Assembly (NCBI GenBank): GCA_943355055.1
Contig: CALREA010000001.1
Location: forward strand, 26,722-90,721
Length of the DNA: 64,000 bases
Direction of reading: 5' to 3'
Source: Candidatus Peribacteria bacterium
GTDB taxonomy: Bacteria; Patescibacteriota; Gracilibacteria; UBA1369; UBA12463
The translations under genes were made by a program, and so were the position numbers. The stretch's first letter is position 1. Each line of letters begins with the position of its first letter. The notes under the pieces are model-generated. The model worked only from the letters and a program-made list of their open reading frames with translations. It ran no database searches and was not told the origin of the DNA. Positions 6,122 to 12,835 of this stretch are shown here, piece by piece.

Positions 6122-9100
6122 ATGGCAGAACAGAACGCTATAAAAACTCAACAGAAACGACTCGATGCCATCGATCAGAAAGAAGATCGGGAAGTTCTGG
6201 TTGGCGAGAAAAAATATGGGGATGTTATATTCGGGAAAGTAGCCTCCCTCACTCGTAAAATTGATACCGATGCGGGTATTACCGATGAGCGCGTGAAGGC
6301 GCTGCCGGCGTTCCGGAAGCTCAAGCAGGATGCCATGAATACAGCCCACGACGAGCTGAAAAATATTGACGAGAAAAACATCGATGCAGCAACCAAGAAG
6401 CTCGAACTCACCATTCGTCAGCTCGAAGTCAAGTTTGAGAAGATGAAAGAGCTTACGCCGCTCATGGACACATTCGAGAAGTTCCAAAAAATGTTTGGCG
6501 CATTGCCGTTTCTGCGTGATTGGATGACGCTCTATACCGCTATCGATCCGACCAAACGAGCGCCACCCGAGACGATGATGAAGGATATGGAAAAGCTCAT
6601 GAGTATCGGTGGTGGATATGCTCCGGCAGGAGAAATGGTGAAACATATGGAACTCGATGTCGTAAATCTGATGGGTGCGTACTTGCGCGGAGATCGAGCG
6701 ACAGCCGACATGACGATCATCGTACTCAGTGAGCGCCTCGCATTCGCTCGGCGCGTCACAGAACACCTCCCCAAAATCAAAGAAGAACGCAAAAAGATCG
6801 AAACATCAATCCGTGAGTATGAGTCGCATAATGCCGCGCTGCGAACCGCCATCAGTTCGGGTCGTCCGTTGCAATTCATGAAGGGCCTCGAGCAGAGCTA
6901 TCTCGATGGAATCAAGCTCATGCCGGCATTGAAAAGTATGACGAAGTGGGAAAAAGAACTCACAGGAGAAACGAACGGTCGCGTGTCAGTAGGATATGAG
7001 AAATTATTACCCAATGAAGTTCGCAAAGAAGTAACATTTACGACCATCGCTATTGATGGCCAGGGTAAGCCAAAAGATATGCCTGCGAACATTCCTCTTA
7101 CGCAGGAAGCGATGGTGAGAACGGAAGAAACCCTCCAGGGTCAGCTCCTCATGATCCGTCGTGGTATCTATCTCACGACTAAGGATCAAAAATACAAATC
7201 GTACTTCGATCAGAGTCAGGAGAAGATGACGAGCCGATTGATTGATGACGCGTTGCAATATCTACAGGATGCTCAACAAGCAGATCATCAGGAGTCTCCA
7301 CGCTCTATACTTGAACCTCTTCAAGCAAGCGATTTTGACGGAAATCAGACAAAAGAAATTCATCAGTACATGGGTATTATCGCCGGCAACTTCGACAGTA
7401 TACAGCGAATGCAGCCGGAGAATCCCATCGGAGCCGCGCAAGAAAACTCACTGTTTCAAAAACGGGTTCTTTCTCTCAGGAAAAAACTGGGAGCTGGTGG
7501 TGTCGATGCGAATGCGAATACCACCACCATACTCGGTAATGAAGCACAATTCCTCGGTACCAAACTCATGAATTTTTCGAAACTCAAAGAGCAATCTCCT
7601 AAACAACACGAGGCATTCACGAATATTCTCAACACCTACCTCCAACAATCACGCGCTCTTTCCGGCCAGATGCTCACGCAAAATCCAATCATCGGCGAGT
7701 TCCAGCAACAGAGTGTGGATGCTAAGCAGATGTTTTCTGGCCTTTCCACAACTTTCCAGAACCTCTCCGTCAAAATAGAAAAAACAGGCGAGGGATTTTC
7801 TGAGTTGGATATGGATGATATCAAAAAAGAAATTACCACTTTCCGATCGCGAACATCATATAAATTTCTCAAAGGCTCACAAGCAATGAGTGTCCTGCAG
7901 GAGATGAAAAAATACATGAGCGATCCATCGCTAATCCCTCCGAAAGATTTGGCCATGATCAAGCAGGCCGAACAATCGATTTTGCAAAGCCAGATGGCGC
8001 TTCAGCAGATCGATCAGACATGCGAGCAACTCATGGGGATGAGTGGATATGGGGTAGGGAAGAATCTTATTCTCAGTCATCTGAAATTAATCGCGAAGAT
8101 TGCGGCGGCAGTAATCGGTGCCGTCGTAGTAGGTCAGGTGATTGCAGCAAGTGGTGGGCTGGGAATTGTTGCCGCAGGTACGGGATTGGGAGAGAAGGTG
8201 CTTGAGTTTCTTGCGATAAATGCACTTATTGGAACGGGCGCTACAGCTGGATCGGCTATTGGCGATAGTCTCATCGAGCAAAATATGAACGCTTTTCAAA
8301 AAGATCAAATTATTCAATCTTGGGTGAGAAATGTAGCGATGTCTACGGCTGCTGGCGCACTTAGTCCACTTCTCGGTACCGGTATGGGCAGAGTTTCCGC
8401 GACCTCCATGAAAATGATGCAGCAAAGTCGCCTCGGATTCATCCGTACTGCTGGTGCTAACATAGAAGCCCGCGCCCTCAAACAAGCCTTAGCCGCAAAC
8501 GCCGAACGCCATCTCTCCGGCAACATATTCAAAAATATGCTCAGAGAAACCAAAGAAGAACTCTTCGAAGAAGGTCTCGAAGCCACAGGTCGTGCCATTG
8601 CACCTGATGATCCTTCCTTAGGTTTTGCTTTTTCTCTGCTGGGTTCTGCATATGGACATGGAAAGAGGGTGGAGGGGGAAAAAACGATGCCAAGATATGT
8701 CATGAGTCCCTCCGAGCACACCACTGCACGCCAACAATACATCAACAATGTGCGGGATGGGAAAGCCGACAATTATGCCGGAGAGATCGATGATTTCCTT
8801 GCAATGGGGCGAGTGGTAACCGATGAACAGGGCATCCTTCACATAACTCGCGGGAATGAAACACTTTCTATACCAACATCCATTCCCGAGGGGAATATAT
8901 TCCGGAAATATAGGAAGTTATTCGGAAATGATTTTTTGAAACTAAAAGAGTTCATGCGATTTTTAGATGATGTTCACGCTCGGCCGAATGGAGAAAAACT
9001 TCTGAAGGCGATCGGCCACTGCAACACGAATAATATCAATATTCTAAAGGTACTCGTCGATCTCCCTAACTTAGAAAATCAAGAATTTCTTTATCACATA

Positions 9101-12100: not shown

Positions 12101-12835
12101 ACGCTGACGAAGGAGTTCATGGCACTCCAGGAGGCAAGCACCAAGACAAAAGAAATGGGGGAGCGATTCAAATCACGTCTCGAGGAGTTTCGTAAACTAC
12201 TGGTAGTAGATGCGAGCGACAAAGTTATCACGCTTCGTAGTACTATGACAGGCAACATTGAGGATGTAATAGGTCATATTCGACAGTGTCTTGGCTGTCT
12301 CACGAAGGAGGTTAACAATGACACTAACCTCACGTTCGGAGATCGCAACAGATTCTTGCTGATCACGCGTGAGTTTAAAATGGACCCCTCGCAAAGTCTT
12401 TCTGACCAGCTCGTGACGGTACTCCGAACAAAAGAAGAGGGTGAAAGCGAGGGTCGGTTATCATTCGTAATGGATAACGTATATGGCACGCGTTCGCCCG
12501 ATATTCTTGCTGTGAATGTGCTGACCGTTTTGAAGAAAATGAAGGCATTGAAGAAATCTACCGGTTCGAAATCAATCGATATATTCGTGACCGATGCGGC
12601 ACTTATAAGCTGCGGTCTAACAATGGAGCATCTTGAGAAAAAGATTCATGATGAATTTGGATCGACATCTATGCGGCGGACGACAAAGAACGTAACGGTA
12701 GAGCCATCTGCCAGCGGTGACGGCCATTACGAAATCGGTGGCGGATTCAATGGAAGAACTTCTCCCATTATGAAGTCTGATGGCAGTCTTACTGCGACAA
12801 CAGGCGCCGTATCAGGCATTGCCATCTCCCTCTAA
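6122..12835 (+). CDS. giant (2237 aa) hypothetical protein with an internal Gly/Ala-rich hydrophobic block and a helical-repeat module
   Basis: Uninterrupted 6.7-kb ORF with no N-terminal signal peptide. The hydrophobic block is at about aa 650-760 (nt ~8066-8400). At least nine copies of an [FY]-x-[ND]-[NDP]-[IVFA]-x-x-[FL] motif lie between nt ~8918 and 10186. I recognised no catalytic motif. Confidence 0.9.
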   Translation: MAEQNAIKTQQKRLDAIDQKEDREVLVGEKKYGDVIFGKVASLTRKIDTDAGITDERVKALPAFRKLKQDAMNTAHDELKNIDEKNIDAATKKLELTIRQLEVKFEKMKELTPLMDTFEKFQKMFGALPFLRDWMTLYTAIDPTKRAPPETMMKDMEKLMSIGGGYAPAGEMVKHMELDVVNLMGAYLRGDRATADMTIIVLSERLAFARRVTEHLPKIKEERKKIETSIREYESHNAALRTAISSGRPLQFMKGLEQSYLDGIKLMPALKSMTKWEKELTGETNGRVSVGYEKLLPNEVRKEVTFTTIAIDGQGKPKDMPANIPLTQEAMVRTEETLQGQLLMIRRGIYLTTKDQKYKSYFDQSQEKMTSRLIDDALQYLQDAQQADHQESPRSILEPLQASDFDGNQTKEIHQYMGIIAGNFDSIQRMQPENPIGAAQENSLFQKRVLSLRKKLGAGGVDANANTTTILGNEAQFLGTKLMNFSKLKEQSPKQHEAFTNILNTYLQQSRALSGQMLTQNPIIGEFQQQSVDAKQMFSGLSTTFQNLSVKIEKTGEGFSELDMDDIKKEITTFRSRTSYKFLKGSQAMSVLQEMKKYMSDPSLIPPKDLAMIKQAEQSILQSQMALQQIDQTCEQLMGMSGYGVGKNLILSHLKLIAKIAAAVIGAVVVGQVIAASGGLGIVAAGTGLGEKVLEFLAINALIGTGATAGSAIGDSLIEQNMNAFQKDQIIQSWVRNVAMSTAAGALSPLLGTGMGRVSATSMKMMQQSRLGFIRTAGANIEARALKQALAANAERHLSGNIFKNMLRETKEELFEEGLEATGRAIAPDDPSLGFAFSLLGSAYGHGKRVEGEKTMPRYVMSPSEHTTARQQYINNVRDGKADNYAGEIDDFLAMGRVVTDEQGILHITRGNETLSIPTSIPEGNIFRKYRKLFGNDFLKLKEFMRFLDDVHARPNGEKLLKAIGHCNTNNINILKVLVDLPNLENQEFLYHITKMVSIFENHPAIFRATGSLLDIALKIDKKAVEAVMEKLNNNNRREIFKKNPGMFGDILTLIVKGEFSYHASFYLNQCIDFSDNNADIFHILLSETKNESVDQSIFPRLYATHDVFRGNPEILQEYIKFLRNYPMIDQHGRSIPSLLVAAKVLYGDNVSTFKSLVRGLSSSSAHIAYDTALSEIISAHRKNPQLQELYERAKGMNESADMMVLITLLQRNFGNDIRRLARTLDSLTRETGRHIALTDLIRAEPIYSDNIDMFDALSNSLLHHGYHPDGLDELLKAKSMYQNDISLFRSFLEVAETGKYRAIQNLLGTLNALKKYPDFYPLIFEAAKHGKASVDLLVNYREIFGDNIIILRGFVDANITDGIEGMEAFAATLKIQSIIDGTSISPNYDPEIYQIMKHRSAYIAFLGRDSAIADFTNFLKMHAGRSAAITVKEYMRYKLFESSTHSADRENRGVVLLFPEYDISKGITRENWLYVLSIYSGSYDGGMIYGDVVSLMETGKNAMLDFMNELRDRVLKEGPEALAPHEKAALMNFAHSIPHYKMLERTAQFLLPFTPPETGDTAPHLASIRASCQSLFIKFAKRDRTNQARNINYAHSDLASFYEKIDAFRGNLPFTSDLLKTFDSLQEDRENFRLMQNHVLQGFASVARIASGNLATYMPRLTAISNELHAQITSTTDIAQQKVFLETCRKKLDNLLAETFESELGIHNLPPMTQEIMDHIMPHIAYLSNISESTPFKRDILSLFVLLNTTGKWDAFKRGEVLDLSPYFSGENLRALEAYLNNRTAHDIFAGVDPTFFGKLSEKTEAVMVGESGGIADTIGGIERHLGDLSDSDNFTTMEQKLLGILKKFGSKMVGKSLSERFRNPTYTDEVMVELGTLENEKDVLPTIQKITRILGSLLKFQESIGALDLTEKLQNLENSIKPSNAVIMAFQKIDVDMKSESGAKPIGDDIEHLESLLNKHREKLSDDEFTLANEYLAKVKQATMDLYVMKDTLTKEFMALQEASTKTKEMGERFKSRLEEFRKLLVVDASDKVITLRSTMTGNIEDVIGHIRQCLGCLTKEVNNDTNLTFGDRNRFLLITREFKMDPSQSLSDQLVTVLRTKEEGESEGRLSFVMDNVYGTRSPDILAVNVLTVLKKMKALKKSTGSKSIDIFVTDAALISCGLTMEHLEKKIHDEFGSTSMRRTTKNVTVEPSASGDGHYEIGGGFNGRTSPIMKSDGSLTATTGAVSGIAISL

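Follow-up and report, generated by a model that had tools for sequence, protein, structure and literature searches.

A giant protein of Candidatus Peribacteria with a shared front end and exchangeable C-termini: a candidate polymorphic effector of Patescibacteria

What might be the task of a protein of 2237 residues, which belongs to no recognisable family and is encoded among housekeeping genes? In this work, we describe the analysis of such a giant gene, and of the small gene preceding it, in a 64,000-nucleotide stretch of the genome of an uncultured, ultra-small Candidatus Peribacteria bacterium (assembly GCA_943355055.1, contig CALREA010000001.1, positions 26,722 to 90,721 of the forward strand), hereafter called the window. 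An earlier note, drawn from the sequence alone, had singled out the open reading frame (ORF) and suggested a protein inserted into a membrane after export, as an effector or pore former. On balance, we favour reading the gene as one allele of a polymorphic, toxin-like effector system, restricted to Patescibacteria (Peregrinibacteria, Gracilibacteria and others), bacteria of the candidate phyla radiation (CPR). The family has a modular, polymorphic architecture and a narrow range within the CPR, is accompanied by a partner gene, diverges fast, and carries toxin or enzyme cargo in relatives of the window protein.

A shared front end with unrelated C-termini

Relatives were sought with a profile of the shared region, scored against 1.84 billion representative proteins. 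The 33 representative hits are mostly long proteins, of 1000-2400 aa, and all named relatives come from metagenome-assembled genomes of Candidatus Peregrinibacteria, Peribacteria, Gracilibacteria or Patescibacteria, with GCA_026395555.1, GCA_026395515.1, GCA_964356305.1 and GCA_943354965.1 among the assemblies in which the family occurs. The core common to most of the 33 proteins corresponds to query aa ~322-852, and comprises a helical region, a hydrophobic block and an acidic junction; six other proteins have in common the first ~110-130 aa alone, and the five long ones among these form a sister subfamily. A word-indexed search retrieved the identical protein, recorded in NCBI/ENA (P0001), a full-length homologue with 68% identity (P0002), and P0003-5. 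As the earlier note had stated, no known family accommodates the protein: matches were found neither in Pfam, NCBIfam, PHROGs and PADLOC, nor in PDB, searched by sequence and with three profiles, and scanning of the whole protein and five sub-regions against Pfam and NCBIfam, down to E=5, returned sub-threshold noise (DUF6582, DUF1319, ACAD9 C-terminal). No description of such a family emerged from a limited literature search. Judging from these sequence and profile searches, the front end, aa 1-852, would constitute a new family limited to CPR bacteria.

In nearly all members the family match stops at profile positions 811-820, an end point seen in 28 relatives. The junction at which the conserved module ends has the consensus ETxEExxEEGLxxxGxxxAPxxPxLGFxFSL (aa ~810-852), and two of its residues, G834 and F835, are nearly invariant across the family. 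Past this point the C-termini of the relatives are unrelated: P0003-5, for example, are 54-55% identical to aa 1-851 of the query and unrelated beyond. The alternatives found so far include an HExxH motif combined with a kinase, a kinase alone, FHA domains combined with a calpain, and WG repeats, and all recognisable cargo domains sit C-terminal of the hydrophobic block. Protein-kinase domains occur in P0008, P0014, P0027 and P0003-5; a calpain-type cysteine protease (Peptidase_C2) is found in P0035, and WG beta repeats in P0015. FHA domains, and HExxH together with a kinase catalytic loop, are likewise present among the relatives. In the sister subfamily, aa 1099-1408 of P0018 match AvrRxo1-ORF1 (PDB 4z8q, E=3e-51), a type III effector that is a zeta-toxin-like kinase phosphorylating nicotinamide adenine dinucleotide (NAD) (PMC5491322, PMC5087710). 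Cargo of the kinase, FHA, calpain and AvrRxo1 types consists of enzymes needing a cytoplasm.

In related genomes the giant gene occupies a syntenic slot, with the order miaA-recJ-DHH-[small]-[giant]-yebC. Compared with two congeneric genomes, the window shows 80-92% identity in the flanking proteins, whereas identity drops to 58% for the small partner and to 54% for the N-terminal module, and the cargo is non-homologous. At the level of sequence, divergence above that of the flanks, together with replacement of the cargo, may be taken as the signature of a locus of inter-organism conflict.

Genes located downstream of the giants change along with the cargo. Kinase-type alleles feature an additional 183-aa gene 3' of the giant; an unrelated 127-aa gene comes after P0012, a 214-aa gene after the kinase-containing P0008, and a gene for a 317-aa HD_4 (HD phosphohydrolase-type) protein (L017, 5402-6355) after P0018. 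One 1821-aa giant of L008 combines an N-terminal domain similar to that of the query with the middle region of the sister subfamily and with cargo of the P0003 type (57% identity over 783 aa), followed by the same 183-aa gene. Since the same cargo is found with the same follower behind a different middle region, cargo and follower move as a unit. The cargo-linked genes of 183, 127, 317 and 214 aa are putative immunity genes; as a speculation, the HD_4 protein could provide an enzymatic immunity by reversing NAD 3'-phosphorylation.

The DHH…yebC slot of L008 (2881-14599) was observed to house two giants, P0012 and, upstream of it, the 1821-aa gene that belongs to the sister subfamily, with three small genes in between. 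The order within it is small gene, 1821-aa giant, 183-aa gene, two small genes, P0012 and 127-aa gene. In this genus, the slot acts as a hotspot of such cassettes.

The partner gene stops 12 nt short of the giant gene. Small genes whose products are 22-70% identical are located directly 5' of the giants in L002, L004, L006, L007, L008, L014 and L017, and these proteins have common ends, LxxLIxKS… and …LLxxLD[E]. The partner is also found 5' of the examined giants of the sister subfamily, P0018 and the 1821-aa gene of L008, the homologue preceding P0018 being 30% identical to the small protein of the window (E=1e-8). Giants from three divergent groups are preceded by it, and its occurrence follows that of the N-terminal domain from one subfamily to the other. 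No match to a Pfam or PADLOC family was found for the small protein, nor one to the WXG100 or Lap families. A weak match to phrog_27715, a PHROG family of unknown function, was also recorded (E=4.5e-4). A small gene in L013, initially taken as a further partner, turned out to be unrelated, and this example was dropped.

Organization of the protein and of its neighbourhood

The features of the locus are collected in Table 1. The giant gene is, as previously described, a single open 6.7-kb frame, with 2237 codons from the ATG and no internal stop; its start is backed by homologues, which open with M-[APS]-E-[QH]-[NS]. The possibility of a decaying gene, raised in the earlier note, was discarded, the ORF being intact both in the window and in all relatives.

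On its own, the N-terminal domain is matched in proteins whose middle region is different, namely P0018, P0021, P0024 (altogether 152 aa), P0025, P0027, P0033 and the product of the 1821-aa gene of L008. It is a separately mobile module, and probably a docking site for the small partner or an export recognition site; in the Pfam/NCBIfam scan it yielded nothing but the sub-threshold match to DUF6582. The stretch of ~650 aa with which the protein opens, said earlier to be highly charged and helical, contains 27% D, E, K and R residues and is modelled as all-alpha: in an AlphaFold2 (AF2) model built from 28 sequences, the predicted local distance difference test score (pLDDT) is 70-94 over aa 100-640. 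Conserved motifs of this scaffold are IP…LLxxRxxxYLxTGDxKYK, DPxxA, NP and QxGxxPSE. The N-terminus contains no hydrophobic stretch, the first 60 aa being highly charged, and no 19-aa window outside aa 640-770 rises above a Kyte-Doolittle value of 1.2, in agreement with the lack of a signal peptide noted before.

The block at aa 646-770 is the sole hydrophobic region of the protein, with a Kyte-Doolittle 19-residue maximum of 2.29. The three peptides from which it had been recognised are present exactly, at aa 657-690, 696-714 and 738-756 (nt ~8069-8401). Summed Hessa-scale values for the three helical segments are +2.6, +4.2 and +6.2 kcal/mol, and no other window falls below +8; a membrane-like segment is thus indicated by both scales, and the block consists of one good and two marginal membrane helices. 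Glycine, alanine and serine make up 37.6% of the block, vs 21% of the whole protein. On the glycine-zipper-like spacing the results point both ways. The block contains 20 small-xxx-small pairs, the top value of all 125-aa windows, against at most 13 elsewhere, and the family pattern is conserved; shuffling within the block, however, gave P~0.16, so that in the query composition accounts for most of this spacing.

Both position and character of the block are conserved in 28 relatives, in each of which it is the sole region of this kind. Across the 28 members the third segment has the consensus AxGxxGxxxGxxxG, with G752 and G756 conserved in at least 90%. The pLDDT of the block is 27-34, a low value that would be as expected for a region folding only in a membrane. 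In the sister subfamily an analogous Gly/Ala-rich block is found at aa ~700-800. When the modules of the two subfamilies were compared by hhalign, full alignments were dominated by cargo, and trimmed ones gave a 35-column match with 33% probability.

The cargo of the window protein, aa 853-2237, begins, after a variable linker, with an array of helical repeats. The ten units, with the motif [FY]-x-[GDN]-[ND]-x3-4-F, are kept in the 68%-identical P0002, and shuffled sequence gives 0-2 hits, so that the repeat module reported earlier stands out from the shuffled background. Gaps within the array may hold degenerate units, and the array probably serves for target binding. Further on, aa 1462-1851 and aa 1690-1959 have counterparts, with 20-29% identity, in L016 and L015, respectively, and the copies in L016 are related to the query over aa 1462-2208. 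The related copies in L015 and L016 indicate that the window cargo is an independent evolutionary module.

The C-terminal domain, aa 1960-2237, includes the most conserved stretch of the protein, with 90-98% identity to P0002 over aa 2001-2100 (also given as aa 2001-2150). A word-indexed search with the whole 1367-aa cargo returned the protein itself and P0002 alone; a targeted search with the last 278 aa identified 11 more homologues, of 31-62% identity, and the former negative result is therefore an artefact of sensitivity. The homologues have in common the motif RQCLGC…E-x-NNDTNL-x-FGD. R2054, C2056, C2059, N2065, N2066, D2067, N2069, F2072, G2073, D2074, F2078 and R2212 are invariant, and Q2055, E2063, N2076, D2095, D2118, Y2121, G2122 and K2139 are at least 90% conserved. 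The previous statement that the C-terminal region displays no catalytic motif was thus too pessimistic, an invariant polar and cysteine-containing motif being present. No Pfam or PDB family matches this domain, and we propose that it represents a new domain of ~280 aa, the putative active part of the cargo.

Three further observations concern the cargo. In L015, the region 1222-3725 contains an ORF of no more than 612 aa that is related to query aa 1690-2208 and located directly 5' of a RelB/YafQ pair. A candidate P-loop at aa 1851 (GSKMVGKS) was dismissed, as it is not conserved in more distant homologues. Genetic code 25, considered for the fragmented cargo homologues of L015 and L016, was likewise rejected, since the UGA codons that cluster there fall between genes.

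Table 1. Features of the giant gene, of its product and of the small partner gene (window coordinates)
Feature	Coordinates	Strand	Basis or remark
Small partner gene, ~105-aa acidic helical protein	5792..6109	+	Listed ORF begins at 5768; homologues favour the ATG at 5792
Giant ORF, 2237 aa, stop codon included	6122..12835	+	ATG start, frame open throughout
N-terminal domain, aa 1-~130	6122..6511	+	Profile positions 1-~130 match alone in other proteins
All-alpha scaffold, aa 131-645, one beta hairpin (aa 305-323)	6512..8056	+	AF2 model
Gly/Ala-rich hydrophobic block, aa 646-770, helical segments 656-674, 696-714, 738-756	8057..8431	+	Hydropathy
Post-block helices and acidic junction motif ETKEELFEEGLEATGRAIAPDDPSLGFAFSLLGSAYGHGK (aa ~808-848)	8432..8677	+	End of conserved module
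Variable linker, aa 853-922	8678..8887	+	18% identity to P0002 (aa 851-900) vs 68% overall; pLDDT <35
Helical repeat array, aa 923-1363	8888..10210	+	Ten detectable ~30-aa units, ~34-41-aa spacing
Helical middle of cargo, aa 1364-1959	10211..11998	+	Conserved with P0002; low-confidence model
C-terminal conserved alpha/beta domain, aa 1960-2237	11999..12832	+	11 further homologues

The neighbours of the giant are housekeeping genes. Upstream lie miaA (71-1039), recJ (1146-2870) and a gene for a DHH/DHHA1 protein (3325-4968); downstream, the convergent yebC (12832-13620) is followed by genes for an SLT-like protein, a malic enzyme and an SLH protein. Ahead of the small partner gene lie about 800 bp devoid of a long ORF (4969-5767). 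Their counterpart in L004 and L005 carries a 267-aa gene on the minus strand; in the window the stretch may represent a promoter region or some remnant. The SLT-domain (lytic transglycosylase-like) protein adjoining yebC (13623-14783, minus strand) is 42-43% identical to its syntenic counterparts, vs 80-92% for the remaining flanking genes in these genomes. Its gene is the second one evolving fast at the locus, and the protein may interact with the envelope or with a host wall.

Elsewhere in the window, a Fic/DOC-family protein (36221-37243, plus strand, E=2e-23) is encoded in a patch of low G+C content (0.41 vs ~0.47, at 36-40 kb), and may be an acquired toxin or AMPylation gene. A 1068-aa protein (50757-53963, plus strand) contains Amidase_2, Ig-like and SpoIID domains; it would be, from its domains, a large peptidoglycan hydrolase, and could act on a host wall. 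A MORN-repeat protein is located at 32790-34133 (minus strand). Five sizeable ORFs without a Pfam match, all on the minus strand, were also recorded: 28881-30788 (635 aa), 49358-50623 (421 aa), 26199-27344 (381 aa), 60458-61480 (340 aa) and 18026-18901 (291 aa).

A proposed delivery scheme and its alternatives

In the scheme that we propose, aa 1-852 would serve as the delivery module, and aa 853-2237 as exchangeable cargo. The N-terminal domain and the small acidic partner would act together as a chaperone or export-recognition pair, and the marginally hydrophobic three-helix block would be soluble in the producer, to be inserted later in the membrane of a target. The protein would exit the CPR cell; one candidate route is a type IV secretion system, chromosomal and of the monoderm type, described as widespread among Patescibacteria in a paper in which its substrates were not identified (PMC12102498), and we mention it as a lead. 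The block would then insert into the membrane of a host or a competitor, and the cargo would act in the cytoplasm of the target. Export, membrane insertion, translocation, action in the target cytoplasm and activity of the window cargo itself are steps that we infer from the comparisons reported above.

Membrane insertion after export, in the manner of an effector or pore former, had been put forward in the earlier note; in favour of this proposal are the block, the module, the cargo swaps and the partner gene, while the lack of secretion genes in the window and the marginal segments count against it. The comparative evidence, namely cargo swaps, an AvrRxo1-type toxin, the partner and the cargo-linked genes, strengthens the case for a translocated effector.

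Several results weigh against the polymorphic-effector reading. Within the 64-kb window no secretion apparatus is encoded, including one of the EssC/EccC type, and the protein itself displays neither a signal peptide nor a recognised secretion or trafficking domain (Pfam and NCBIfam, E<=0.01). Only one of the three segments of the block reaches typical transmembrane hydrophobicity. Comparison of the model of the N-terminal module with PDB by Foldseek gave nothing significant (best E 0.45), the top entries (Umb1 umbrella toxin, catenins, ClyA and XaxA) being generic long helical bundles, and no structural match to any known translocator was obtained in either PDB or BFVD. For aa 1400-2237, two sequences entered the AF2 model, which has a pLDDT of 41 and is unusable. 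The window allele has no downstream ORF that might encode an immunity protein, its stop codon (12833-12835) overlapping the convergent yebC, and P0002 and P0007 equally lack one. Finally, the combination of kinase and FHA domains is also typical of a bacterium's own signalling.

This last point, together with the missing signal peptide, the housekeeping genes around the locus, the window allele without an immunity candidate and the absence of secretion genes nearby, leads to the main rival explanation. Here the giant would stay in the CPR cell as a scaffold or signalling protein, held in the membrane for good by the block as a transmembrane anchor, and both the N-terminal helical region and the variable C-terminal domains would work in or on the producer; Ser/Thr kinases paired with FHA domains are a classic feature of a bacterium's own membrane signalling. 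We consider this explanation unlikely. The AvrRxo1/zeta-type NAD-kinase toxin, the calpain protease and the HExxH motif of relatives are hard to reconcile with such a function, as are downstream genes that move with the cargo, a locus at 54-58% identity between flanks at 80-92%, and two giants in the slot of L008; moreover, the segments of the block are marginal and Gly/Ala-rich, unlike stable anchors. Defence islands, too, are marked by variable effectors attached to a conserved core and by a quick turnover within a single slot, and NAD-targeting effectors, the type to which the AvrRxo1 homology of P0018 points, are common in defence; a stand-alone relative of the cargo, furthermore, adjoins a RelB/YafQ pair. 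The protein might accordingly be imagined as an intracellular defence protein of the abortive-infection type, whose N-terminal module senses phage or stress, or anchors the protein, and whose C-terminus is a suicide effector acting in the producer, through NAD depletion or modification, for instance, or as a kinase or protease. This is improbable in our opinion: PADLOC matched neither the giant nor the partner, P0003 or the 183-aa gene, NTPase, STAND and nucleic-acid-sensing domains are lacking (Pfam/NCBIfam), the neighbours are housekeeping rather than defence genes, and the N-terminal domain with its small partner resembles a substrate-chaperone arrangement and not a sensor.

Giant proteins of the adhesin type are frequent among CPR bacteria. 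Giant membrane proteins, thought to mediate host recognition, are enriched in CPR predators and epibionts (PMC8080830), and an attachment protein exposed at the surface, with repeats binding the host and the block anchored in the CPR membrane, would find a counterpart in the helical repeat array of the window cargo and in the WG beta repeats of one relative. Its probability is nevertheless small, and falls below that of a defence protein: a signal peptide and adhesin domains of the Ig, PKD, cadherin or lectin type are missing, the repeats are of the intracellular type, and outside a cytoplasm there would be no use for FHA domains, an NAD kinase toxin or kinases that depend on ATP. Least credible of all, to the point of being very improbable, is a relic of a phage or tailocin tape-measure-like protein. 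Such proteins share with the giant the general design, being long and helical, with Gly-rich hydrophobic segments and a small chaperone gene in front, and tape measure proteins are the best BFVD matches of the N-terminal module model in Foldseek; these matches, however, are not significant (E 0.02-1, TM 0.09-0.12), no PHROG matches the giant, and phage genes are absent from the miaA-recJ-DHH…yebC neighbourhood of any genome examined.

If the polymorphic-effector reading is taken further, the front end and the partner could form a self-contained translocation device, unique to Peregrinibacteria and Gracilibacteria, and thus a new class of effector delivery, by which an ultra-small episymbiont would bring exchangeable enzymes into the cell of its host. 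The family might also be the first recognisable substrate family of the relaxase-less type IV system of Patescibacteria, and the RQCLGC…NNDTNLxFGD domain a new enzymatic effector fold. We regard this extension as tentative and rather doubtful.

CPR bacteria, or Patescibacteria, account for a large share of bacterial diversity; to our knowledge, almost nothing has been learnt on how they manipulate or kill their hosts, and we know of no genetic system outside Saccharibacteria. The family described here would supply a concrete list of candidate host-directed effectors, with at least one new putative effector domain gained, and a class of candidate substrates for type IV secretion in Patescibacteria. 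Its signature, made of the N-terminal domain, the block and the acidic junction, may be used to mine further cargo from metagenomes, and heterologous hosts permit tests of single domains with no need for a culture of the organism.

Comparison with known systems

Translocators of the SseC/YopB/IpaB/EspD group are long helical or coiled-coil proteins, with a central pair of hydrophobic helices and an adjacent small acidic chaperone, and are soluble before insertion. The giant resembles them in being helical, in its hydrophobic block and in the adjacent small acidic gene. The query itself has no SseC match in Pfam; a weak one was found over the block of P0012 (E=0.005, 17 bits vs a 30.2-bit cut-off). 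Unlike the protein described here, type III translocators carry no 1400-aa cargo, and we are not aware of type III secretion in CPR bacteria.

An internal hydrophobic delivery region is also a feature of single-chain translocating toxins, such as the large clostridial toxins, MARTX and, with its T domain, diphtheria toxin. As in these, one polypeptide contains a marginally hydrophobic helical region and an enzymatic cargo, the latter seen here in relatives. In contrast, sequence and fold similarity to these toxins is lacking, no receptor-binding or autoprotease domain is recognisable, and the cargo is C-terminal.

Type VIIb LXG toxins use small helical targeting partners, similar to Lap or WXG proteins, and some of them, such as TelE, act via glycine-zipper membrane segments. 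By analogy, a small helical protein is encoded here 5' of a large protein, without a signal peptide and polymorphic at its C-terminus. A small helical protein beside an effector has also been described (PMC13622651). No LXG match was obtained in Pfam, whether the whole protein or aa 1-645 was scanned (E<=5) and, unlike in LXG toxins, a 700-aa scaffold and the block come after the N-terminal domain. A type VII apparatus was not found in these genomes, no search aimed at it having been made.

The similarity to AvrRxo1-ORF1 and the zeta-toxin kinases belongs to P0018, whose cargo is a clear homologue followed by a dedicated second gene; the cargo of the window is dissimilar. The second genes also differ, by their descriptions: AvrRxo1 has its own partner, ORF2, whereas a gene of the HD_4 hydrolase type follows P0018.

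A close parallel is offered by polymorphic toxins, which reportedly (Zhang, Aravind et al. 2012) consist of an N-terminal trafficking region and an exchangeable C-terminal toxin, with a cognate gene downstream. The present family differs from them in that Pfam and NCBIfam reveal no LXG, RHS/YD, PAAR, TPS/haemagglutinin or MafB-N match, in its CPR-limited front end of ~850 aa with a block of its own, in a cargo that is often effector-like (kinase, FHA, calpain), and in alleles, such as that of the window and some others, without a downstream gene. It agrees with them in the conserved front end and the sharp junction, past which even close relatives have unrelated C-termini, in a bona fide toxin cargo (the AvrRxo1-like one of P0018), in cargo-linked downstream genes that move as a cassette, in the presence of two giants in one slot of L008, and in a divergence much faster than that of the flanking genes.

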